Assembly (NCBI GenBank): GCA_016199065.1
Contig: JACQHK010000047.1
Span: 1-43,831 of the forward strand
Direction of reading: 5' to 3'
Length of the DNA stretch: 43,831 nt
Source: Candidatus Microgenomates bacterium
Lineage (GTDB): Bacteria > Patescibacteriota > Microgenomatia > JACPZF01
Part shown: positions 22,470 through 35,156 of the stretch, one piece after another
Numbering within the stretch: position 1 is the stretch's first letter
How the letters are laid out: every line of letters starts with the position of its first letter
Position numbers and translations under genes: made by a program
Notes under the pieces: generated by a model
What the model was told of the DNA's origin: nothing
The model's database searches: none
The model's input: the letters and a program-made list of their open reading frames with translations, nothing else

Positions 22470-23636
22470 TTAAGAATTTTGGTTGATAATATTTTTTGCG
22501 CGCTGGTATATTTGATCAAATGTAATAATCTCTGGTCTAAACAAATTTTTTCTAAAATATTCGAAGCACGATAATTTATCGGTATTACCAATTTCCCCGT
22601 TTTCATCTGTAAATTCGTCTCTCATGCTCCCCATCAGTAAAAAGCATTTTGGTTCGAAGCAAAATACCTCCTCTCCTGTTCTATTACCATTGTCATCCTT
22701 TATCTCTATTAGTTCAGTAATATTACCAACTGTTATTCTTATATATTGTTGACACTGGGCAATTGCTCCAGTAAGTTCATCGCTTACTTGCCAAACATTA
22801 CTTATTCTATACATTTTATCATTCATCAATCTCTTTTTGTGTGTTTTTATTTCGACAATATTAAAAAACTGTGCAATCCCCAAAGTTTTCAATATACCAT
22901 CAGGTTTTTTCCCATGACTTAAAAAATCGTTTCCTTTTAATACTTGTTGTAGTTGTTCTTTCTTGATTGCGGCATTGAATACATACTCAAGACCATAACC
23001 GAAAATCCATTTATTGTCTTCAAAAAATTGTTGCCAAACATCTTCGTCTCTTTGCTTTTTCCACTCACTTTTTATTTTAGCAAAAGCGTTCGCGTCTTCT
23101 AATAAATTTTTAAAAAAATCAAGTGATTTTCTTTTTTTCGAAATATTTCCAATATCTCCCATATTAATTAAACCCCTGGACTCTGCTAGCTCGGCAATAA
23201 TTTTAAACCCTTTCTCATCAGACAAAATCGTTGTTAAATGCTTCTTTAATTTTGTCTCGTCCTTAATCACGCCCGCATCTAATATAAGACTTCTATTTGA
23301 TACTGAGGTAAGATCTAGAGAGGAAAAGATTTGAAGCAAATTCAATACACCTTTAAATCCTAATGTAGATAAATTAATTTTCTCAACCAATTTTCCGTTT
23401 GATAGTTTTGATATTTGAACCCCCGTAATTGCTTCATCGTGCGCGATGTAAGTAAGACGAACTTCTATTTTGGGAGATATAACCAGTCCTACGTCATAAT
23501 AAAGATCTTCTTCATTAAAAACAGTACTTACATATTTACCTTCACCCTTAGGAAAATCTGCTACGTAAATTTTCCCAATTTTTTTATTAGCTATGATAGT
23601 AGACTCGTCTGCTTGAAAAAAATCAAAAATTCCCAT
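22470..23636 (-). CDS. sduA: Shedu anti-phage nuclease (DUF4263 family)
   Basis: EDVWQQFFEDNKWIFG, PD...VEIKT, ELTGAIAQCQQY, EIITFDQI: PD-(D/E)xK core with the Shedu QxxxY motif; AT-rich. Confidence 0.85.
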   Translation of the reverse strand: MGIFDFFQADESTIIANKKIGKIYVADFPKGEGKYVSTVFNEEDLYYDVGLVISPKIEVRLTYIAHDEAITGVQISKLSNGKLVEKINLSTLGFKGVLNLLQIFSSLDLTSVSNRSLILDAGVIKDETKLKKHLTTILSDEKGFKIIAELAESRGLINMGDIGNISKKRKSLDFFKNLLEDANAFAKIKSEWKKQRDEDVWQQFFEDNKWIFGYGLEYVFNAAIKKEQLQQVLKGNDFLSHGKKPDGILKTLGIAQFFNIVEIKTHKKRLMNDKMYRISNVWQVSDELTGAIAQCQQYIRITVGNITELIEIKDDNGNRTGEEVFCFEPKCFLLMGSMRDEFTDENGEIGNTDKLSCFEYFRKNLFRPEIITFDQIYQRAKNIINQNS

Positions 23637-23703
23637 TGTTTTTGGTTAAAGCATGTTAATATAGGCATATTTTACACCAAGGAAATTAGTAAGCAAAAAA
23701 TAT

Positions 23704-23742
23704 TTATCTCACCTTAAACAATTCTCTATCAGGATAAACCGA
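23704..23742 (-). repeat. degenerate copy 2 of the last 13 codons of the A2M gene
   Basis: TCGGTTTATCCTGATAGAGAATTGTTTAAGGTGAGATAA vs A2M end TCCGGCCACTCCGACGGAGGATGGTTTGAGGTGAGATAG; 26/39 by eye, 21/27 in the 3' part. Confidence 0.6.
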
Positions 23743-23762
23743 ACCCAAAGATTCCGTACGTA

Positions 23763-23796
23763 AGTAATTCCCACACTCCAGTGCGCGAGAATTACT
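23763..23796. repeat. 34-bp hairpin repeat, copy B
   Basis: AGTAATTCCCACACTCCAGTGCGCGAGAATTACT; 33/34 identical to 25901-25934. Confidence 0.92.
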
Positions 23797-23838
23797 GACA
23801 AACAAGTTTTCTCCCAATTAGTCCCACATTTCCAACTA

Positions 23839-24723
23839 TTAACATTTCGGAAAATTTATTTGCTCTAATGTAAAATTAAAGTTTTCGCTTTCATCTTTGA
23901 GCCTTTTGACAGAAGTAAAGCAATAATCAAGATTATTATCCACAAGAATTGCATTTCTCCCTAAACGAACCGCAGCAATCGCTGTTGTTCCCGAACCCCC
24001 AAAAGGATCCACTATGGTACCACCATTAGGTGATAATAGTTTAATAAAAAAAGATGGCAATCCCACTGGGAAAACGGCGGGGTGATTATAATTTTTTCCA
24101 ACAAGAGGAAGCACTATTACGTTTGAAGGCAACACGTCTTTTTTTCCAATCCATCTCGAAAGGTCTCTACCGAATCCGCTGTTATTTTCGGAATTATGCC
24201 TGGCGAGATCTTTTCCATTTAATTTTGAGAGACGGGATTCCGCCCAATCACCTAGCGATATTTTTACAGCGTTCTGATTGATATAAGGTTTTGTAGTTTT
24301 AGCTAAATGAAAACAATACTCCCAACCATCCCTTAATCGTGTTGGCCAATAACCCGGCATTGGATTTGTTTTGTACCAAATATAATCTTCAATCGCGAAC
24401 CATCCCAGTTCTGACAGTTTTTCGATAGTTTTCCAAACGTATCTATTTCTTACTCCATTTTCTACCTTATCTTTTATGTTAATTACCAAACTACCATTTG
24501 GTTTTAGAATATGGAAAAATGCATTGTGAAAGCTTGAAAACCATTCTACAAATTCGTCCGGGCTTATACTATCATAATGCTTCTTGCGAGCATCTGCGTA
24601 TGGTGGAGAAGTTATAATTAAATCAGCTATTTGACCTAATGGAGGCAAAACACTTCTGCTATCGCCAAAGATAATATTACACTTTACTTTTGTCCTCTTT
24701 ATACTTTTAGACTTGTTAACCAT
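23839..24723 (-). CDS. beta-class amino DNA methyltransferase (probably N4-cytosine)
   Basis: TSPPY (motif IV) precedes HPAVFP and DPFGGSGTT (motif I). Confidence 0.93.
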   Translation of the reverse strand: MVNKSKSIKRTKVKCNIIFGDSRSVLPPLGQIADLIITSPPYADARKKHYDSISPDEFVEWFSSFHNAFFHILKPNGSLVINIKDKVENGVRNRYVWKTIEKLSELGWFAIEDYIWYKTNPMPGYWPTRLRDGWEYCFHLAKTTKPYINQNAVKISLGDWAESRLSKLNGKDLARHNSENNSGFGRDLSRWIGKKDVLPSNVIVLPLVGKNYNHPAVFPVGLPSFFIKLLSPNGGTIVDPFGGSGTTAIAAVRLGRNAILVDNNLDYCFTSVKRLKDESENFNFTLEQINFPKC

Positions 24724-24729
24724 TTTTAA

Positions 24730-25668
24730 CTAATTAGTAGCAATAAACTTCATAAATTTAATTTTATCTATCTTCCTTTCTTCGTTTAATAAATTAAGTT
24801 TTTTAAATCTTTCTTTTAATAAGAGTGAGCATTCTTTTCTGTTTTTCAACGTGTAAAATGGCAAATACTTGCTTACTAGAGACATTGACAATTTATATAT
24901 ATCAGTAGCCGGCCGACCTGTTATATATGGGAATAAAAATCCTGGTTCCCACGATTCACAGTTTGGAGAGTATGGTAGTCCTTGATTGTTTAATTTTATG
25001 TGTCTGCTTTCCTTATATTCTTTAACTTTCCCATTTGGAGGAGTCGCATAACCAAACACACAAATATATGGCCTTGTAACATTAATCTCTGATTTTGCAA
25101 TATTTTCTAGTCTTAAAATAACTCCTGGTATATCTTGTCCACCAACAGTATCTGATGATTTTTTTACTGATGCATATAATCTCAATCCCGAAGAATATTT
25201 TGGAGTTTTTAAATCAGCAACTAGATCACCTTCTCTTGACCCATCAAAAACCGCTTCGATATTTGAATTTTTTGCATTTGAGCTTATCCTCATCAACTCG
25301 ATGGCCAGATATTGATAAAAAACACCAATCTTCATTCTTTGACGTTGCATTTCGTGAGGAATTGCATCTAAATCAAATATCTCGTCGACTTCGCAAGAAG
25401 AATAAAAAAAGGGCGAAAGTATGGGGCAACTTCTTAGTTTCAAATGTTTTATACATAAATCAACGAGTTCTTTCGGGGAAGAATTAACTCGTCTAAGACT
25501 TCCTTTTTTGTCTGTTATTGTTCTCTTAAAAGCAATTTCTACCGCTACTAATACTTCCTTATCTGTTAATGGAAGGTCTTGTTTTGGAAATAGACCATGT
25601 GCTGACAAAAGAGTATCTCCTTCTCTGGGATATGGTTGTAATGTAAATTTATTTCTACTCGAAGGCAT
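24730..25668 (-). CDS. putative Type II restriction endonuclease
   Basis: 6 bp upstream of the MTase and co-oriented; EGDLVAD...ASVKKSSDT resembles a variant PD-(D/E)xK site; AT-rich. Confidence 0.65.
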   Translation of the reverse strand: MPSSRNKFTLQPYPREGDTLLSAHGLFPKQDLPLTDKEVLVAVEIAFKRTITDKKGSLRRVNSSPKELVDLCIKHLKLRSCPILSPFFYSSCEVDEIFDLDAIPHEMQRQRMKIGVFYQYLAIELMRISSNAKNSNIEAVFDGSREGDLVADLKTPKYSSGLRLYASVKKSSDTVGGQDIPGVILRLENIAKSEINVTRPYICVFGYATPPNGKVKEYKESRHIKLNNQGLPYSPNCESWEPGFLFPYITGRPATDIYKLSMSLVSKYLPFYTLKNRKECSLLLKERFKKLNLLNEERKIDKIKFMKFIATN

Positions 25669-25990: not shown

Positions 25991-28900
25991 CTATCTCACC
26001 TCAAACCATCCTCCGTCGGAGTGGCCGGAGACATCGGGAGTGTACATTTGATAGGCAGAGGCTGGCGGATGATGATAGCGGCCGGGAGTTGTGGCGCGGA
26101 CTCTGTAGGTAAATTCATAAACTCCCGCAGGCAAATAGTCTGCAAATAAAGACGTTCGATCGTCGTGATATTCTTTGTGTTCAAAATACAAATTCCGGTC
26201 GCCTTTTTCTTTCAATTTGGGTGACTTGGCCGACAAAACACTGGAAGTTTTGAGACTTTCATTGACTGATTCCAAACCGGCCGGCAGGATATCTTCAATC
26301 ACCACAAAATGCCGTTCTTCCGGAGCAACGATAATCAACCTAACCCAGGCTTCGGAATTTTCAGGAAGCGACCCGCTCGGCAAAATATTACCTTTACTAT
26401 CAACCAGTTCTCTTACCACCACCATTCCTTGCTCCAACGGTTTGATTTCAGTAAACGGCAGGAAATATTTTAAGTTGACGTTGTAATACAGATTTCCTTC
26501 TCCGCTTTTGGCAAAAGTCAGAGAGTTTTCTGTGCCGATTTTTAATTGCGTAATACCCAGTGTCAAATCCTCCACACGCAACAAATCTTCTTTAACAAAT
26601 TTTCCTTCTTTGATTGTTTTTCCGTTTAACGAAAATCGATAATCTTCATTTAATTTTTCGTCGCCTTTTAACAACAGTTGCGTTGCAATAGTTTTAATTA
26701 CTGCTGCAGTATCTCTCGTTGATGCCCAATGACCATCACGTCTGGTAGTCATTAAATAACGAATCACTTCCGAAATTAAGGGATTGTTTTTGTTGTAAGA
26801 CATAATTGATTCTAAGACCGCAGCGGTGGCTGTGGTATTGCTACCCATGTAATAACCATAGTTTGTTTGCTGTTCCTCCCAGTGAGTAGTGGTCGCAGTT
26901 TTTTTGGCTAAAGAAATTAATTCGTCATTAAGTTTTTTACCTCTCCCAGAAGCTGTAGGAATTGCACTCATTGCCACTGCCAGGTTAGCCCGTGATTCTA
27001 AACTCATCTCAAAACGTCTGGTATAAAGATTTGAAGTATATGATGCCAAATTTACCCCGCTGTCTTTTAAGACATAAAGAATAAATGCTTGGGTGTTTAA
27101 TGAAGGCGGCGTGACTGAAGAAAGATGCTGCACTAAATAATCCCTGGCTTTAGTCAAAGTCTGATCAGCGACGCTGAACTTGTCTTTTTTAGCTTCAGAA
27201 AGACCAAGGTAAGCATAGGCTGTTACAAACGGGTCGCTTTGCAGTTCCGGCCACCAACCCCAACCGCCATCGGCATGCTGCTGACTGTTTAATCTTTGTA
27301 CGCCATCGCTAATAATCATCGTTAATTCTTTGGCGCTGATTAAACCGCTTTTTTCAATACCGGCTTTCGTAAAAACCCGGTTGGCAAAAACCGCCGGCAG
27401 GAAACGGCTGGTAATTTGTTCAACGCAGTTATAGGGGTAGTCAATTAAATAAGTTAAGGCATTAATACTGGCTGCTCCTAAAGAAGGAGAAAGTGAAATT
27501 GCCGCTGACCCCTGAGTTTTATCAACATCGTTTGGCAAAAGAATTTTTTCTTCTTTATTACCCTGGGAATTTCCGGCTGTGGCAACCGTCTCGGGAACCG
27601 AGTAGGATTTGACCGGCAATTTAATTTCTACAACGTCGCGGGTCACACCATCGCTTCCCGCAACTGAAATTTTTATTTTTGCTTCTTTTACGTCCTGTGC
27701 TTGAGTCTTCCAGGTTAATTTTGCCTGTGCGCCGTCAGCTAAAACTTGCTGTTTGGTGTTTGGTTCGTTGATCTTTATACCTTCAGTCTCGATTTTTACT
27801 GTCGTGTTTTGCTCTTCACCGCTGGTGTTGGCCACAATGGCTCCCAACTGGGCTTCGTCACCAACGGATAAAAATCTCGGTAAGAATGGTCTGATTAATA
27901 AATCCCTGCTGACAATCACTTCAGAAACTGCCGATCCAACCGCTGTGTCTTTGGAATTGGCAATGGCTCCCAGTCTCCAGGTTGTCAAATTGTCCGGCAG
28001 TTTAATTTGTACTGAGATTTTGCCGTTTTGATCAGTCGTTAAATTAGGATTCCAATAGGTGGTATCAGGGAAATTGACGCGGGAAGTATCATTTCCTCCG
28101 CCTTTTTGGTTATGAACATAAACGTCCTTGGCAAAATACGTGTGGTATTTTTCCGTTTCTAAATTGTATACGTCAAAGTCTTTTCCAAAAACATATTCCT
28201 TGGAAGTCACTTTTACTGGTTGATTATTTTTGTCTAATAAATAATCGCCTACCTGAATTTCTCCGGCAGTTTTCCACTCTCCGTTAACCAGCATCCTATG
28301 AACGGCAGTCACTTCGATTTCTCCGTTTAATATTAAATAGTCGTTGACCAAGTGTTTAAAAGTCTTGATAACTTTGGCTTCTACAAGTTTTGAGGAATTT
28401 TCCGATTCTCTGGTCAGAATCACGTCTCCTGTTTTAACGTCTTTAATAGATTTATAACTGTAATCTTTCATTAAGATCGGTGTTTCTGCAGTAAAACACC
28501 CGCCGCTGCCGCCCTTGGCTCCCAGGTTTAAATTGGCATTAATGCGGTCTAAAGAAATTGTTAAGAGTTGTGCCGTATCTACGTCTAAATTACGCGGCTG
28601 ATAAAAAGTTTTGTAAATATCGGCTAGTTCTATTTGTGCCAAATCCCAAACCGCCTTATCAACCAAACCAACTGCTAACTGGGTAGAAACCGGATGGCCT
28701 AATAGGTCCTTGGTTTGAATGGTAGCCTTTAAGGTTTCTTTAGGTTTATAGCGTTTTTTGTCAGTGGTGATAGCCACCTCAACTTGCTGTTTCTTGTCTG
28801 TTACTTTGATTTCGGTGTATCCCATCTTAAACTCCGGCGGTTTTTTAAGGTCGTTACCGCCCCTGACTAAAACTGCACTGATAAACGCATTGGGAGCAAA

Positions 28901-31900
28901 CTTGGGAGGAATAGCAATCGGGAAATTATTTGACGTGTCTGACGTATCAACCACCTGATAATCAAGAACATTCCCCCGCTCTGCAGTTAATAAAGTCTTT
29001 GCTGAATCAGTCGCAAAGGGCGTAGCCACGAAAACGGAAACTGTCTCGCCTACCAAATAATCTCTTTTGTCGGTAACCAGAACTATCCGGTCGTTGTTTT
29101 CCCTGGCCGTAGAAAATCCGTAGCCTGAGACCCACAGAAAACTACCACTAACGTTTTGTTTACCGTTCTTGTCAGAAACTCGGGCAACGACTTTAACAGT
29201 TCCCCCCTCAACAGGAGTAAAAGAGGCCTTTGCATAACCTAATCTATCAGTCGTAACTCTGGTGCTGATTAAAAGAGTATCTGTGGGTTTGGCAACGTAA
29301 TAAAATTCTCCGTCGTCAGTATTTTGTTCACGAACCGTTTCCCAGGTACGTTTGTAAAAGGAAACTTCAACAGGGGTCTCGGGAACTTCCAGACCTTTAA
29401 GATCAACCGTGACAATTTCTACCTGCACTTCTTTACCGCTTTGGTTAGCATACGAAACCGGATGAATACCGGCATAAATTTCTCCTTTATGAACTGTAAA
29501 ATCTGTCGAGGCGGCAATTGACTGATTACTGATGTCATTAACCACTGCTTCAACCCTCATTTTTTGACTGGTTTTATATTTGGCAATATCCAAAGGCAGA
29601 GAAAGCTCTAAATCACCTTTGGTGTTAGTAATACCCTTACCCTGAGTTACTTCTGTTCCGGAATAATAACTGGAACCAGAATAGTACCACCAGGGCCTGG
29701 ACCAATAAGAATCCGGGTCGCCAAATTCATATCGCCAGTCTTTGTCCCATCTAAAAGAATAATCCTCTGTTTGTAAGGTCCAGGTCACCGGAGCTTCAGT
29801 CACTGGTGCACCAAAATAATAAGAGGCGTTAATTGCGGCTTGGGCAATTTCACCTTGGGTATAGGCTGGTTTATTGGTAGTGACGGAAACTGCTAATTCA
29901 GGTTTACGATATTCTTCGACCTGAAACTGTTGAATAGATCCGTTACCTTTAAAATCCACACCCAATTCGTAATTACCCAAGCTGGCATTTTTGCTTAAAA
30001 CAAACTCACTCCAGAAAGAACCAAAGGAGTCGATCGGCAGGACCTGGGTAAAAATTGCCCGGTTTTGCGCATCGGTAATTTTTACGGTAACTTTTTCTCC
30101 GGGTTCCAGGTTTTGGTAAGCTCCGTCATTATCTTTTTTAATGACACCTTTAAAATAAACTTTTTGACCCGGACGGTAAATCGGGCGGTCCAATGTCAGA
30201 TAACTCTTGTAATTTTTTTCGGCATAATAATCGTTTCGTTCATTCGGATCATAATAAGAAGGTAATCCGAAATCATAACGGTTTATACCTTCGCTCCAGG
30301 CACTGGCAGCAACAACCGCATCATCATTGTTTTTACCAAACACAAAGAGATCGTTTTTCTGCAACAGATTTACTTCTTTTTGCCAAACACCATCCTGGTT
30401 AGAAACTCCCTCGGCTAATTTATTGTTGAACATATCTGCCAGCTCCAGTTTCATTCCGGGAATAACCTGCGCCGTTGACTGGTTAACAGACCAGGTAAAA
30501 ATCTGGTTATTGCTTTTTTTTACAGTTAAGGCTGATTTACTGACAATCATAACCATATTGTCATGAGCACCCTGGGGAATTTTTACCTCTAAAAAGTAAA
30601 ATCCCGCGGGAAGATTTTGGCTGTTTTGATCGGTTACTTTAGTTACCACCTGCACCGGAGTATTTAGATCGGCTTCGTAATTTTCGCTCCAGGAACGTAC
30701 TTTGGTTAATTTAGAAGTGTCGTAGTCCTGCCAATTGGCACAACCTACGTTTTGTCTTCCCTGACAATCATTACCATATCTTCTCCGATAAAGTTCCAAA
30801 AGATTTTCCCTGCTTAACCGATACAGCGAATAATCGACACGGTTAGTATTTACCACTTGTGTCACCACCCTGGGAATAATTTCCTGATTAAAAGAGGCAA
30901 AATAAGTTCCTGAGGGATAAATGCTGACGGCCGGTTTGTAGGGAGCGGTGGTAAAGGAAAAAGTGTAGGGCTTTCCGAGCGCTACTCCATATTGATCTTT
31001 AACGTTAGCACCGATTGTCACTTGGTATTCTTTCGAGGGTCCGAAATACGAACTTACGTAAAGTGAATTTTGGTTATTGTAGCTCGAAAAAGAAAAGTAA
31101 GGCTTGGTCGCAGGCTTGGGAATAATTGTCACATTATCGGCAAAGGAGTCCTCATCCATGGGAGTTTTAAAATAAACCTGCAGATTATAAAGTTCACCCG
31201 CAGTTGTTTTGGCTTTATTCTTAGGCTCTGTAGAGATTACTCCGGGAAAATCGGTGGTGGTAAAATTCCAATAATAATCATCTTCCAGACCATTCGGCCC
31301 GTCTGTGCTTTGGGCACCGTTTTTAACTACTGCTTCGTAATTTTCCAATCTGGCCAAAGGAGTTAACGGATAAAAACCCACCACCTTACCATTTACGACT
31401 ACTTTTCCGGGTATTTCCGTTTTGTTTTTATCCAAAACTTTAAAGGAATTAACCAAAGAGGAATACTCCATGTTCTGGGTAAAAAAGGCCGCAATTGAAG
31501 CAACTGGCGAAGCAAATCTTTCTCCTAAAGACGGTGAAACGTCTTCTACTCGGGGACGTGCACTGGAAAATTGCCACTGATAATTTTGTTTTAAGACACC
31601 TCCGTCTTGTGATTTAAGTCCGGAAAAAACAGTAACCTGGTAGGTCGTGGCTTTCTTAAATGGCAGGCTCGGCCGAAATTGATAAGAAGTAGTTCCCAAC
31701 CAACGTCCTTGACCAACGAGCGGCGGATTAATTTCGAAAGCCGGTTGTTTAACAGCACTATTGGTAGCTGTTGTTAAGGGTATCATCGGCCTATCGAAAA
31801 CCACCGTCACCGGAGTTAAATCTTCCAAGGCCTCGTTTTGCGGAGCTGCCAGAATAACCTTTGGCTCTCCGAGAGTCGAAAAATCAATGTTTTTAAAACC

Positions 31901-32653
31901 CACCATGGGTATAAAAAACTTCGAAAGAACCAGACCGTCAAATCCTACCTGGTAATGATTATCTCTTTGTAGAGGCTCTTGCGGAGTAAAAATTAGTTTC
32001 TGCTCACCCTCCCAGGAAAAACTGCCCGGAATCGGTGGTTTAATCCGAAAACTTTTTTCCGCTGTTTGTTTAATAACTTCTTTGTCAAAAATAACTTCGA
32101 TTTTGGTTTCTAAGGGATTTTCCAGGCTATTTTGACCGGGAAAACTCGTTAACACAACGGGTGGGTGAAAAAACGGACCGAACTTGAGCAATAAAAAAAT
32201 TATGAGAACGAGAAACAGAGGTAACCGGGCGATTCGCCATTTTTCTCCGGGAGTAGACGTTTGAAATTTGTTCCCCCAGGAAGATATTTTTTGGGTAAAA
32301 ACGTTTAAAAAGTAAAAAAATTTATCAATGACCAGGATTAAGTATTTTTTAACAAAGTCAGCAATCACCGACAAAAACTGTGGCTTTGTAAGAACTACAA
32401 CTATCACTGTACCGATAGCCAAAATGCCCACAATTAAGGCCTGCATGGTTAAAACCGGTCTTATCACCAACTGCTGTTGGATAAAGGTGTAAGCTTTCCA
32501 CAAAACGGTAATGCCGATTAAAACTATGGCCACCCAAAAGAAAATTTGATTTCGTAAGCGCCGGATTTTACTCAAAAGAGAAGCGGGATAAGATGACGAA
32601 GGAGGTAAGTCCCCGGCAGAAGGATTATTATTTAAGGAATCGTTTTCTGGCAC
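25991..32653 (-). CDS. membrane-anchored bacterial alpha-2-macroglobulin with N-terminal Ig-like (Big_5/SbsA-like) repeats and a Hint domain in the bait region
   Basis: DRPIYRPGQ (MG2), FQVEEYRKPE, R.NFPDT..W.P, LPDNLTTWR, thioester YPYNCVEQ (27416-27427), DGGWGWW, RATTPGRY..P; ~3 N-terminal TM segments; downstream of pbpC. Confidence 0.95.
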   Translation of the reverse strand: MPENDSLNNNPSAGDLPPSSSYPASLLSKIRRLRNQIFFWVAIVLIGITVLWKAYTFIQQQLVIRPVLTMQALIVGILAIGTVIVVVLTKPQFLSVIADFVKKYLILVIDKFFYFLNVFTQKISSWGNKFQTSTPGEKWRIARLPLFLVLIIFLLLKFGPFFHPPVVLTSFPGQNSLENPLETKIEVIFDKEVIKQTAEKSFRIKPPIPGSFSWEGEQKLIFTPQEPLQRDNHYQVGFDGLVLSKFFIPMVGFKNIDFSTLGEPKVILAAPQNEALEDLTPVTVVFDRPMIPLTTATNSAVKQPAFEINPPLVGQGRWLGTTSYQFRPSLPFKKATTYQVTVFSGLKSQDGGVLKQNYQWQFSSARPRVEDVSPSLGERFASPVASIAAFFTQNMEYSSLVNSFKVLDKNKTEIPGKVVVNGKVVGFYPLTPLARLENYEAVVKNGAQSTDGPNGLEDDYYWNFTTTDFPGVISTEPKNKAKTTAGELYNLQVYFKTPMDEDSFADNVTIIPKPATKPYFSFSSYNNQNSLYVSSYFGPSKEYQVTIGANVKDQYGVALGKPYTFSFTTAPYKPAVSIYPSGTYFASFNQEIIPRVVTQVVNTNRVDYSLYRLSRENLLELYRRRYGNDCQGRQNVGCANWQDYDTSKLTKVRSWSENYEADLNTPVQVVTKVTDQNSQNLPAGFYFLEVKIPQGAHDNMVMIVSKSALTVKKSNNQIFTWSVNQSTAQVIPGMKLELADMFNNKLAEGVSNQDGVWQKEVNLLQKNDLFVFGKNNDDAVVAASAWSEGINRYDFGLPSYYDPNERNDYYAEKNYKSYLTLDRPIYRPGQKVYFKGVIKKDNDGAYQNLEPGEKVTVKITDAQNRAIFTQVLPIDSFGSFWSEFVLSKNASLGNYELGVDFKGNGSIQQFQVEEYRKPELAVSVTTNKPAYTQGEIAQAAINASYYFGAPVTEAPVTWTLQTEDYSFRWDKDWRYEFGDPDSYWSRPWWYYSGSSYYSGTEVTQGKGITNTKGDLELSLPLDIAKYKTSQKMRVEAVVNDISNQSIAASTDFTVHKGEIYAGIHPVSYANQSGKEVQVEIVTVDLKGLEVPETPVEVSFYKRTWETVREQNTDDGEFYYVAKPTDTLLISTRVTTDRLGYAKASFTPVEGGTVKVVARVSDKNGKQNVSGSFLWVSGYGFSTARENNDRIVLVTDKRDYLVGETVSVFVATPFATDSAKTLLTAERGNVLDYQVVDTSDTSNNFPIAIPPKFAPNAFISAVLVRGGNDLKKPPEFKMGYTEIKVTDKKQQVEVAITTDKKRYKPKETLKATIQTKDLLGHPVSTQLAVGLVDKAVWDLAQIELADIYKTFYQPRNLDVDTAQLLTISLDRINANLNLGAKGGSGGCFTAETPILMKDYSYKSIKDVKTGDVILTRESENSSKLVEAKVIKTFKHLVNDYLILNGEIEVTAVHRMLVNGEWKTAGEIQVGDYLLDKNNQPVKVTSKEYVFGKDFDVYNLETEKYHTYFAKDVYVHNQKGGGNDTSRVNFPDTTYWNPNLTTDQNGKISVQIKLPDNLTTWRLGAIANSKDTAVGSAVSEVIVSRDLLIRPFLPRFLSVGDEAQLGAIVANTSGEEQNTTVKIETEGIKINEPNTKQQVLADGAQAKLTWKTQAQDVKEAKIKISVAGSDGVTRDVVEIKLPVKSYSVPETVATAGNSQGNKEEKILLPNDVDKTQGSAAISLSPSLGAASINALTYLIDYPYNCVEQITSRFLPAVFANRVFTKAGIEKSGLISAKELTMIISDGVQRLNSQQHADGGWGWWPELQSDPFVTAYAYLGLSEAKKDKFSVADQTLTKARDYLVQHLSSVTPPSLNTQAFILYVLKDSGVNLASYTSNLYTRRFEMSLESRANLAVAMSAIPTASGRGKKLNDELISLAKKTATTTHWEEQQTNYGYYMGSNTTATAAVLESIMSYNKNNPLISEVIRYLMTTRRDGHWASTRDTAAVIKTIATQLLLKGDEKLNEDYRFSLNGKTIKEGKFVKEDLLRVEDLTLGITQLKIGTENSLTFAKSGEGNLYYNVNLKYFLPFTEIKPLEQGMVVVRELVDSKGNILPSGSLPENSEAWVRLIIVAPEERHFVVIEDILPAGLESVNESLKTSSVLSAKSPKLKEKGDRNLYFEHKEYHDDRTSLFADYLPAGVYEFTYRVRATTPGRYHHPPASAYQMYTPDVSGHSDGGWFEVR
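28109..28498 (-). other. 130-aa Hint domain (mini-intein/BIL/pretoxin-HINT type), A2M residues 1386-1515
   Basis: Starts CFTAETPILM, block B EVTAVH, block F VYNLETEKYHTYFA, ends VHN; +1 residue is Gln; no endonuclease domain. Confidence 0.93.
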
Positions 32654-32735: not shown

Positions 32736-35156
32736 TCAGAAACCTTCTTTGTAGTCAACGACCGAAAATTCTACATCCTCACTTTCCACCTTTTCACCGT
32801 TTCTCAATTGACCAACAGCTTTTACCCTGTGTTTCCCCTTTACTAATTTCCAGGAAGTACTAAAAGGAAAAGTCTTTGTTTCGGTATATTTCTTACCATT
32901 TACCAACCAGGTAACATTAGTAACAGCAGATGATACATTGGCTTCAAAAACAACGGCCTGATCGCTAACCAGCCAGGGAGCATTTTCAAAAACGGCCTTG
33001 GCCTTTGGATTGGTAATCGAGAGAAACGCTAAATCTCCCAAGCTGTCATCACTCTCGCAGAAGGGAGAATAATTATTGGGAATAAAAGGCTGGTCATTTT
33101 GTACAGCCCAACTGTAAACTTCGGAAGGATAATCGACCAGAACTTTTTCTGTCACAAATTCATTCGGACAGGAATCGTTGGCCAGCAGGTTGTTGCGTAA
33201 ATCGATTTTGACTTTTTTATGCAGTGTAGATATTACTCTGGGTTCAGTTTTATTAATAAATTTTTCAAAATATCGCTCAGGACAAAGATCATCGTAGAGC
33301 TGACCCGATAATTTACAAATCTCGATTTCTTTTATTCCTTCCGGTTTTATAAATTGTTCTTTCGGTTTGCCTTTTAAGAATTCTTCAAAAAACTGGTTCC
33401 ATAAAGGAGCCGCGCCTACCACACCGGTAATCTGTTTCATTGGATGATTGTCGTTATTCCCCATCCAAACTCCTACAGTAAAAGAAGGGGTGTATCCTAC
33501 TGTCCAGTTATCATGCCAGTCCGTAGTCGTTCCTGTTTTAACTGCTGCAGGACGGGACAAAACCAGCGGATTCTTTTCGCCAAAACCCAAAATCCTGGCT
33601 TTCGGATCAGATAAGATATCCGTAATTAAATAGGCGATTTGTTGATTTTGTTCTTCAAAAACCGGACGCGGTTTTTCTCTTTTATGTTGAAAAATAGTTT
33701 TTTCTTGGTCGGTGGTAATTTTTTCTATGGCATATGGAGGAAGAAATTGCCCTCCTCTGGCAAAGGAGGCATAAACATTTGTCAGATCAAGCAAAGTCAC
33801 TTCTCCTCCTCCCAGGGTAATAGCCAGATCATATCTTTCTTTTTGGGTAAAGGTGGTAATACCTAACTTCTCTGCCGTCTGTAAAAATTTTTCTAAGCCG
33901 ATGCGGTGCAAGATCTCCACAGCCGGAAGATTTAAGGAAGATGCTAAGGCTTCCCTGGCCAAAACCAACCCATGGTATCTGCCGTCATAATTATTGGGAG
34001 TAAATCCTTCGCCCTTTTTGGTTTTATAAACGGAAGGTACGTCATAAATTAAAGTTGCCGGAGTAAAACCCTGGCTAAAAGCCGCAGCATAAGTAACGGG
34101 TTTTAGTGCCGATCCGGGTTGGCGCAGAGCCGTTGTTAAATTTACTTCACCGGAATTAGTAGCGTCAAAATAATCAATTCCTCCCAGCATGTTGAGAATT
34201 TCACCCGTTTTGTTATTGATTAACACCAAAGAGCCATTACTTAAGTTGTGTTGTGTTTTTAACCGTTCAATCCAAAGTCGTGCCAAGTCCTGGCTCAATT
34301 TAAAAACCGGATAATCAAGAGTGGTATAAACATTAAAACCGTTCGTGTTTTTTATTCCCATTTTGTCTATTTCTTCTAATACGAAATGAACGAAATGGGG
34401 GGCCTTTATATTATTATTAATAGGGGTAAAAACCAGAGGTTCAAGTTTTGCTTCTGTCACTTCTTCTTTTTTTAGCAGGTCGTTTTCGTATAACAGATTC
34501 AAAACATATTCCTGACGTTTCTTGGCTGCGGAAAAGTTTGTGTAAGGATTTCTTTTCTCCGGTGACGAAATCAGTCCGGCCAAAAATGCGCTTTCGGCGA
34601 CCGATAATTGACTGGCGTCTTTTCCGAAATATAAAATCGAAGCCGCCTGAACACCGTAGGTTAGATTACCAAAATACATTTGATTGAGATATTTAGTCAA
34701 AATATCTTTTTTCGAATGTGTCACAGAAATTCTTAAGGCCATCAGAATTTCTCGAATCTTGCGCAGAAAACTCCGTTTTGAGATTTTTCCGGGAGAAATA
34801 ACCGAGGCCCTGGCTAACTGTTGGGTAATCGTACTGGCACCGCTGACAATTTTTCCTTCTTTTAGATTTAAATAAAGAGATCGGGTGATGGCAGAAAAAT
34901 CCACGCCCGGATTGTGCCAAAAACTTTGATCCTCAGAAACAATTACAGCCTCGATTAAGTGTTGAGGAAATCTCTCATAAGTTACTGTTTGCTTACTGCC
35001 GATTATCCCAGCTTGCTCATAAAGTAAGATATTATTTCTGTCCCAGATTTTAATCGTTCCTGACTTGTCAAAGTTAGGATAAGTCCAGAAATAAAGAAAA
35101 ATTAATAGAAGAAAAAATAGAAGAGGGATTTTGATCCGGAAAAATTTGGTAAGCAT
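32736..35156 (-). CDS. pbpC: penicillin-binding protein 1C (transglycosylase/transpeptidase with C-terminal Ig-like domain)
   Basis: EDQSF..PGVD, GASTITQQLAR, RKIRE; GSALKP (SxxK), SLN, KTGT; canonical partner of bacterial A2M. Confidence 0.9.
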   Translation of the reverse strand: MLTKFFRIKIPLLFFLLLIFLYFWTYPNFDKSGTIKIWDRNNILLYEQAGIIGSKQTVTYERFPQHLIEAVIVSEDQSFWHNPGVDFSAITRSLYLNLKEGKIVSGASTITQQLARASVISPGKISKRSFLRKIREILMALRISVTHSKKDILTKYLNQMYFGNLTYGVQAASILYFGKDASQLSVAESAFLAGLISSPEKRNPYTNFSAAKKRQEYVLNLLYENDLLKKEEVTEAKLEPLVFTPINNNIKAPHFVHFVLEEIDKMGIKNTNGFNVYTTLDYPVFKLSQDLARLWIERLKTQHNLSNGSLVLINNKTGEILNMLGGIDYFDATNSGEVNLTTALRQPGSALKPVTYAAAFSQGFTPATLIYDVPSVYKTKKGEGFTPNNYDGRYHGLVLAREALASSLNLPAVEILHRIGLEKFLQTAEKLGITTFTQKERYDLAITLGGGEVTLLDLTNVYASFARGGQFLPPYAIEKITTDQEKTIFQHKREKPRPVFEEQNQQIAYLITDILSDPKARILGFGEKNPLVLSRPAAVKTGTTTDWHDNWTVGYTPSFTVGVWMGNNDNHPMKQITGVVGAAPLWNQFFEEFLKGKPKEQFIKPEGIKEIEICKLSGQLYDDLCPERYFEKFINKTEPRVISTLHKKVKIDLRNNLLANDSCPNEFVTEKVLVDYPSEVYSWAVQNDQPFIPNNYSPFCESDDSLGDLAFLSITNPKAKAVFENAPWLVSDQAVVFEANVSSAVTNVTWLVNGKKYTETKTFPFSTSWKLVKGKHRVKAVGQLRNGEKVESEDVEFSVVDYKEGF

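Follow-up and report, generated by a model that had tools for sequence, protein, structure and literature searches.

Candidatus Microgenomates bacterium, an ultra-small member of Patescibacteria (CPR, for candidate phyla radiation), encodes a bacterial alpha-2-macroglobulin (A2M) with a Hint domain in its bait region. We consider this domain to be, with a probability of roughly 0.85, an active self-processing element, a judgment that draws on residue conservation, selection, and likeness to known families. The gene lies on contig JACQHK010000047.1 of GenBank assembly GCA_016199065.1, all 43,831 nt of which were analyzed (hereafter, the window). Members of the A2M family are armed by cleavage of a single loop. 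When that same loop houses a self-processing domain, the domain must be either a harmless passenger, bound to excise itself without error, or a trigger that is part of the protein; these alternatives differ in the products they predict. Re-joining of the bait after excision has, in our estimation, about an even chance of being the main outcome of the reaction.

Both components belong to known kinds, namely the type A bacterial intein-like (BIL) domains and the bacterial A2Ms. What appears from sequence comparison to be new is the host together with the bait site, and a distinctive conserved C-terminal flank. A full-text literature search, which covered few subscription journals or supplements, found no Hint, intein, or BIL domain described in an A2M, in line with the initial annotation of this DNA, which knew of no description of the architecture. 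In the Patescibacteria/CPR literature searched, macroglobulin was mentioned only in a reference list, without intein or Hint, and the titles and abstracts of the intein literature on CPR contained nothing on a Hint domain in A2M.

A Hint domain at the bait position of A2M

The host protein is read from a minus-strand open reading frame (ORF) without internal stop codons (Table 1), in which all of the residues quoted by the initial annotation are present exactly as given. Its Pfam domains are, in order, four copies of Big_5, then bMG3, MG2, bMG5, A2M_BRD, PT-HINT, A2M, TED_complement, and bMG10 (residues 2077-2207), and a Foldseek search placed Salmonella A2M (4u4j/4u48) and the Escherichia coli protein ECAM (5a42) at the top (E ~1e-17). 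By this domain content and the CVEQ thioester motif, which is intact as the annotation had stated, we assign the host to the thioester-containing bacterial type I A2Ms. The motif CxEQ is kept in 108 of 116 aligned A2M homologues. The remaining eight (P0009, P0012, P0015, P0016, P0019, P0021, P0028, and P0039) lack the thioester Cys or Gln and have variants such as STEQ, STEY, GTEH, GSEQ, CVEP, and GIEQ; the Hint domain is present in all eight.

The sequence around the insertion reads ...NLGAKGGSGG/CFTAETP...EVTAVHRML...VYNLETEKYHTYFAKDVYVHN/QKGGGNDTSRVNFPDTTYWNP, where the slashes mark the two junctions. Pfam PT-HINT matches residues 1399-1515 at 38.9 bits, above its cut-off of 27.7 bits (E 1.3e-9); Vint, Hom_end_hint, and Intein_splicing match less well. 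The interval first assigned to the domain, 28082-28530, does contain it, but the domain proper is confined to 28109..28498 and the remainder is short flanks. The part of the protein that follows it measures 705 aa, as first estimated. The domain is also the 390-nt interval with the lowest GC content in the gene (0.351, compared with a mean of 0.418; none of 210 intervals is as low), and its GC content was below that of its flanks in all seven relatives checked. Chance similarity or mistranslation can be ruled out given the intact ORF and the agreement of Pfam, PDB, and AlphaFold2 evidence.

Placement at the bait, as originally proposed, is supported in several ways. The Hint domain falls between Pfam A2M_BRD (1192-1337) and A2M (1531-1620). 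We also took a 601-aa query (protein residues 1120-1720) for a phmmer search of the PDB and for AlphaFold2. Two stretches of the query align to ECAM chain 5a42_A, residues 23-241 to positions 672-889 and residues 419-508 to positions 936-1024, so the Hint domain (query 267-396) lies in the unaligned gap, with ECAM chain positions 889 and 936 on either side. The flanks likewise align to Salmonella A2M on both sides of its bait. The accessible text of Fyfe et al. (PMC4498604) describes a bait-region domain that is for the most part disordered and lies inside MG8 of ECAM, in which Arg923-Leu942 of the bait region are without density after elastase cleavage. The interval between these two chain positions includes Arg923-Leu942 whichever offset from 0 to +17 is assumed for residue numbers relative to the chain index.

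The AlphaFold2 model (601 residues, 68-sequence alignment) has a mean predicted local distance difference test score (pLDDT) of 84.8. Confidence is high within the Hint domain (block means 92-97) and in the MG domains to either side of it. The linkers at 247-264 and 399-410 score <50, suggesting that the Hint domain is a separate globule hung in a disordered bait loop. In the strand R..F.DT.YW.P that follows, R406 and W415 are invariant, and F409, T412, A413, and Y414 are nearly so. On the model and the alignments, then, the domain is placed at the A2M bait position, in the segment that separates the BRD helices from this strand, between two predicted disordered Gly-rich linkers.

Distribution and conservation of the arrangement

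The initial annotation had proposed tabulating Hint insertions in A2M homologues by position and +1 residue, and we did so in two sets. The first came from a word-indexed search with residues 1190-1630, in which 1100 proteins reached E <= 1e-3 among 8000 scored candidates; the best 120 of the 1100 were examined. The flanks could be located in 119 of these 120 listed homologues, P0068 being without the downstream flank. The distance between the flank anchors is 133-154 aa in 85 of the 119 and 19-22 aa in 34. Within the long class of A2M homologues, it is 148-154 aa with the Hint domain and 19-22 aa without it. Hint-less homologues (P0042-P0073) read GAKGGS-GGGGGGG-N-DTSR at the linker, and the presence or absence of the domain inside this poly-Gly linker is clean.

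The second set was obtained by an exhaustive HMMER search with the Hint domain alone against 1.84 billion cluster representatives, which gave 5844 matches at E <= 1e-3 (1348 at E <= 1e-10). Among the best 150 of the 5844, 143 proteins were new, and 88 of the 143 matched the hidden Markov models (HMMs) of the A2M flanks by which hosts were assigned. This set contributed 87 full-length A2M-hosted copies at the same site. A one-off insertion or an assembly artifact can thus be ruled out, the site being occupied in 85 of the 119 listed homologues and in these 87 further copies.

The residues expected of a working domain are conserved throughout. In the first set, 85/85 copies have Cys1, Phe2, Thr and His in block B, a conserved Trp, His at the penultimate position, and Asn at the end. 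In the second, Cys1, TxxH, and HN are present in 87/87, so that Cys1, TxxH, and the terminal His-Asn are intact in all 172 A2M-hosted copies, as they are in the window, where they had first been recognized. The catalytic residues remain invariant down to ~35% flank identity.

Position -1 is Gly in 84/85 copies of the first set and 85/87 of the second, and position +2 is Lys in 84/85 and 82/87, respectively. At +1, the first set has Gln (63), Asp (13), or Glu (7), and the second has Asp (50), Gln (14), or Glu (12). A nucleophile occupies +1 in only one copy of the first set (Cys in P0041) and in three of the second (Ser in two, Thr in one).

Because both protein searches used queries containing the Hint domain, the proportions with and without it are biased, and genome samples provide a fairer estimate. 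In a class sample of 201 genomes, 36 had any match, of which, reading contiguous and divided matches from the match tables, 15 had a contiguous match spanning the Hint domain and ~10 had A2M flanks without it. In a phylum sample of 401 Patescibacteria genomes, 57 had any match and 20, on the same reading, a Hint-spanning one. Together with its share of the new cluster representatives among the best Hint matches (88/143), this makes the arrangement a common one. In a species-representative collection, the closest Hint-less relatives carry mainly Chloroflexota labels.

Some Hint-bearing A2M contigs have unexpected labels. The titles of L003, L005, L006, L009-L011, L013, and L017 include uncultured Gammaproteobacteria, Nevskiaceae, Bdellovibrionales, and Micavibrio, and P0040 is labeled Bathyarchaeia; the closest relatives of those contigs are labeled Microgenomates, Roizmanbacteria, WWE3, or Patescibacteria. 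The oddly labeled contigs are probably mislabeled bins. In L092, the contig of the close relative P0068 (78% identity), a single frameshift inside the Hint domain at ~nt 2049-2052 splits the A2M gene, and may reflect either a real pseudogene or an assembly error.

Relationship to known Hint domains and A2Ms

The best PDB match of the domain is 2lwy, annotated as a "bacterial intein-like domain" (phmmer E 3.1e-9, from residue 3 to the terminal VHN), followed by the Vint-type domain 8r2c and then mini-inteins. By sequence, it has every feature by which a type A BIL would be recognized: the Hint fold, an N-terminal Cys, TxxH, VHN at 1513-1515, a +1 Gln (Q/D/E in 83/85), and no endonuclease, the last because the domain is only 130 aa long. 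It lacks the +1 nucleophile that would make it a canonical intein. Its size also rules out an endonuclease-bearing intein, and it is the sole copy in a 0.89-Mb genome.

According to the accessible text of a review (PMC4031507), BILs are without a +1 nucleophile, and those of type A, which end in His-Asn, can splice even so. The route proposed there runs from a thioester through Asn cyclization to an attack of the freed amine on the thioester. The initial annotation had correctly reported Gln at +1 and the absence of an endonuclease, but the lack of Cys/Ser/Thr at +1 does not by itself imply a bait that cuts itself, given that 2lwy, the nearest relative of known structure, is a type A BIL. Other evidence suits a splicing element no less well than a self-arming one.

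The closest parallel is CthBIL4 of Clostridium thermocellum (2lwy), likewise a Hint fold of ~130-138 aa with Cys1, TxxH, His-Asn, a non-nucleophilic +1 residue, and no endonuclease. Aranko and colleagues are said to have found in 2013 that the C. thermocellum BILs are proficient at splicing. The hosts of BILs, too, are secreted or surface proteins, in which the domain occupies variable parts. Unlike the known type A BILs, the domain described here has an A2M bait linker as its host site, a near-invariant [Q/D/E]-Lys C-flank, and Gly-Gly at -2/-1, and it belongs to a CPR-specific clade with co-diverging host genes. With canonical class 1 mini-inteins, it shares Cys1, TxxH, and His-Asn, as well as alleles with and without the element that show a converted flank. 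It differs from them in the +1 Gln in place of Cys/Ser/Thr, in having neither an endonuclease nor a remnant of one, and in being inserted in a nonconserved disordered linker of a nonessential surface protein rather than in a conserved active site; A2M itself was found in only 36/201 and 57/401 of the genomes sampled.

Hedgehog proteins use a Gly-Cys thioester for cleavage and for transfer of the N-terminal part to a nucleophile; their autoprocessing domain has a sterol-recognition extension and is without a terminal His-Asn. The A2M Hint domain, in contrast, ends in HN and is directly followed by the bait linker, and this protein gave no match to the Pfam Hint (Hog) model at E 0.01 or better.

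On the side of the host, the protein resembles ECAM/YfhM and Salmonella A2M (SaA2M; type I) in its ring of MG domains, its BRD, a TED with CxEQ, a C-terminal MG10, and the neighboring PBP1c gene. It departs from both in the poly-Gly bait with a Hint domain and in four extra N-terminal Big_5 domains. The anchor, a lipoprotein one in ECAM, may here consist of the several long hydrophobic N-terminal stretches that are read from the translation.

Selection, inheritance, and exchange of alleles

The pattern of substitutions suggests that the domain is maintained. The ratio of nonsynonymous to synonymous substitution rates (dN/dS, NG86) is 0.035 for the Hint domain and 0.026 for the flanks between L083 and L084, and 0.10 and 0.048 between L085 and L087. 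Because dS is saturated in most of the 36 pairs, both partitions could be computed only for L083-L084 and three pairs involving L085. These values (~0.03-0.10) point to strong purifying selection on the Hint domain. A degenerate relic, which the initial annotation had named as one of the outcomes that would overturn its proposal, is ruled out by residue conservation and dN/dS. In other families there are Hint-like domains that remain uncleaved, and one could imagine that this one no longer reacts and simply sits in the bait loop, a bulky module that is perhaps sensitive to proteases. With the catalytic residues invariant in 172/172 copies and dN/dS far below 1, we regard such an inert passenger as very improbable.

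Across 3570 pairs, identity in the Hint domain and in the flanks (means 0.51 and 0.48) is correlated with a Pearson r of 0.78, and a tree built from the Hint domain alone recovers the main host clades. The co-variation and the matching trees imply that the domain co-diverges with its A2M, and they rule out hopping between distant A2Ms. The host tree (FastTree, 117 full-length proteins with the Hint columns removed; truncated P0068, P0053, and P0096 left out) carries a long-branch warning. On it, presence and absence require 15 changes, an approximate count, at least 12 of which are forced by well-supported branches. When labels were shuffled, the mean was 28.3 changes, and none of 500 shuffles gave as few as 15.

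One case is a pair of sisters, P0013 with the Hint domain and P0042 without it. Over 1313 and 702 residues, the two share 99% identity. Their DNA sequences (L087 and L095) differ by a 387-nt (129-codon) indel and by 16 mismatches in ~3.7 kb. Of the 16, 13 fall in the first 150 nt downstream of the indel and a single one is found immediately upstream of it. Such a cluster beside the indel indicates a recombination tract, and thus that alleles with and without the domain are exchanged between close relatives. The QK that follows the Hint domain in L087 is aligned to GG in the Hint-less allele, from which it seems that the mobile unit comprises the Hint domain plus x-Lys. The pair also indicates that both states are viable in one genetic background.

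Overall, the trees and allele comparisons indicate that the domain is old in this gene family, mostly vertically inherited, and repeatedly lost or exchanged by recombination. Natural pairs of alleles of this kind are well suited to the question of how endonuclease-free intein-like elements persist.

The same Hint clade in other proteins

Relatives of the domain also occur outside A2M. Hosts of these copies include pilin-like proteins (N_methyl, Shufflon_N) and proteins with PKD, Big_9/cadherin, or Tim44-like domains. Within the P0122-P0264 set, some non-A2M proteins (e.g., P0131, P0124, P0125, P0127, and P0153) carry tandem arrays of two to five Hint copies, which are 1-5 residues apart (K, KG, KP, or KGGG). 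In 18 copies, just 3-12 residues separate the Hint domain from the C-terminal end of the protein (P0130, P0135, P0145, P0173, P0201, P0203, P0210, P0234, and 10 others). The short tails after these are usually x-K-[E/D]-P-like, with a Lys within the first three residues in 16/18. This layout resembles that of Hedgehog, and re-joining there would add only a tiny peptide.

The recurrence of Lys raises the possibility that an amine captures the thioester at Gly(-1), either the epsilon-amine on the side chain of the conserved Lys (acting in cis or in trans) or one from elsewhere, for example a peptidoglycan stem. The residue is found at +2 in nearly all A2M-hosted copies, at +1 in 41/83 and +2 in 22/83 of the copies in other hosts, and in most of the short tails, and the x-Lys dipeptide moves with the Hint domain. 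Pilin-like proteins are among the other hosts, and a peptidoglycan synthase gene adjoins the A2M gene. If such ligation occurred, the product could be an isopeptide-bridged or tethered bait, or a trap fired on a chemical cue. More generally, CPR bacteria would possess an extracellular ligation device by which pilin- or adhesin-like hosts are cross-linked without sortase, a sortase-like or Hedgehog-like use of Hint. We know of no precedent for a Hint domain resolved by a Lys side chain. Equally well, the Lys might assist catalysis or adjust the alpha-amine at +1 for an ordinary aminolysis. All in all, we think ligation to Lys improbable.

Proposed excision with re-joining, or possible cleavage, of the bait

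The position, fold, conservation, selection, and population behavior of the domain are given above; the chemical steps and the ratio of splicing to cleavage are what we infer. In the reading that we favor, the A2M ectodomain would fold outside the membrane, and the Hint domain would form a thioester at Gly1385-Cys1386 by an N-S acyl shift, with Cys1386 as the presumed nucleophile. Cyclization of Asn1515 would then free the C-terminus of the domain, which would thereby be excised, and the freed amine of the C-flank would attack the thioester (the BIL-A route), re-joining the bait. The re-joined bait would read ...GGSGG-QKGGGN... and have the same length as in Hint-less alleles. The mature protein would be an A2M trap of the ordinary kind, triggered by proteases and acting alongside PBP1c, and the domain would be kept intact because a copy that does not excise would spoil the host protein.

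Several lines of evidence favor re-joining to a normal bait, which the initial annotation had listed among the outcomes that would overturn its own proposal. Comparison of the anchor distances with and without the domain indicates that exact excision would restore the Hint-less linker length. The 99%-identical alleles coexist, and both junctions are invariant. The tandem arrays with their minimal linkers appear sensible only if each copy splices out. Finally, most homologues retain the thioester, which presumably means that they still depend on a bait that is intact and can be triggered.

The alternative put forward initially is that the domain cuts one or both junctions without re-joining them, so that the A2M severs its own bait. 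This could happen constitutively or on a cue such as the redox state or pH at Cys1. It would either set off the conformational change and expose the CVEQ thioester without a protease, allowing, for example, covalent deposition on a neighboring surface, or yield a two-chain form. Complement C3, C4, and C5 are cut into two chains at the equivalent of the bait linker, by a separate protease.

Some of the evidence does weigh against re-joining, and part of it speaks for self-cleavage. In the accessible text of the review cited above (PMC4031507), cleavage products dominate for the type A BILs that were tested. The +1 residue is non-nucleophilic in 84/85 copies (all but P0041), and cleavage of the bait is the trigger in ECAM, according to the available part of that study (PMC4498604). 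The element has no endonuclease and yet persists (in 15 of ~25 A2M-bearing genomes of the class and in 20/401 of the phylum) despite at least 12 changes. Persistence without drive, at a site where sloppy deletion should be tolerable, suggests a benefit beyond plain splicing. Re-joining seems pointless for the 18 copies at extreme C-termini of other surface proteins, which look like cleavage devices. Two further points are that the published BIL-A scheme has no need of the near-invariant Lys at +2 or of an acidic or amide residue at +1, and that the thioester Cys (or Gln) is lost in eight Hint-bearing A2Ms.

Against self-cleavage, constitutive triggering would waste a thioester that is kept in 108/116 homologues, and opposite modes of action are hard to reconcile with the coexistence of near-identical alleles with and without the domain. 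The linker after excision would match that of Hint-less alleles. In addition, cleavage at the N-terminal junction alone would suffice to cut the bait, although the terminal His-Asn is invariant in 172/172. We consider a self-severed bait unlikely, but it deserves to be kept in view.

If the bait is indeed re-joined, the system would be suited to the study of nucleophile-free protein splicing. The conserved [Q/D/E]-Lys flank may be a missing determinant of that reaction, which is relevant to protein-ligation tools. That the dipeptide enables ligation without a nucleophile is speculation on our part.

Gene neighborhood and genome

The positions of the features discussed are given in Table 1.

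Table 1. Features of the Hint-bearing A2M and its upstream neighbor, with positions in the window
Feature	Position	Strand	Basis
Bacterial A2M gene, 2220 aa	25991..32653	-	ORF list and translation; GTG start as listed; end includes stop codon
N-terminal hydrophobic stretches, ~residues 37-165	32159..32545	-	Read from translation
A2M bait-region domain (A2M_BRD), residues 1192-1337	28643..29080	-	Pfam, E 4.9e-18
Gly-rich bait linker upstream of the Hint domain, predicted disordered, residues 1366-1385 (...NANLNLGAKGGSGG), with Gly(-2) Gly(-1) as its last two residues	28499..28558	-	pLDDT
Hint domain, 130 aa, residues 1386-1515 (Cys1386 to Asn1515)	28109..28498	-	Pfam, AlphaFold2, phmmer vs. PDB
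Cys1 codon (Cys1386), at Gly1385-Cys1386	28496..28498	-	Conservation
Block B motif TAVH (Thr-x-x-His), residues 1449-1452, positions 64-67 of the Hint domain	28298..28309	-	Conservation
Penultimate His1514 and terminal Asn1515, predicted Asn cyclization site	28109..28114	-	Conservation
+1 Gln1516 and +2 Lys1517	28103..28108	-	Conservation and DNA comparison of alleles
Downstream disordered bait linker (GGGNDTSRVNFP), into R..F.DT.YW.P strand	28067..28102	-	pLDDT
Pfam A2M domain, residues 1531-1620	27794..28063	-	Pfam, E 1.5e-20
Thioester motif CVEQ, residues 1743-1746, within TED (TED_complement, residues 1730-1843)	27416..27427	-	Alignment
PBP1c-like bifunctional penicillin-binding protein, 806 aa, upstream neighbor	32736..35156	-	Pfam Transgly, Transpeptidase, BiPBP_C

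The source genome (0.89 Mb in 62 contigs, 95% complete) has one A2M and one copy of this Hint domain. The PBP1c-like gene ends 83 nt ahead of the A2M start on the same strand, which is the classical bacterial A2M-PBP1c pairing. The N-terminal hydrophobic stretches of the A2M are probably membrane anchor helices that place the body of the protein outside the cell. CPR bacteria are thought to be without an outer membrane, and the system could show the role of surface A2M-PBP1c modules in bacteria of this kind.

The bait linker is close to poly-glycine (GGSGGGGGGGN in Hint-less forms), like the pentaglycine bridges that are cut by lysostaphin-type glycyl-glycine endopeptidases. A poly-Gly bait beside PBP1c suggests a trap aimed at cell-wall-lytic enzymes; we offer this as an idea only, by analogy.

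Downstream from the A2M operon, a 312-aa ORF (24730..25668) has no Pfam match. Beyond it, two genes at 22470..24723(-) are likely to be defense genes, as judged from their domains: one encodes a 388-aa protein with the C-terminal domain of Shedu SduA, the other a 294-aa N6/N4 DNA methylase.

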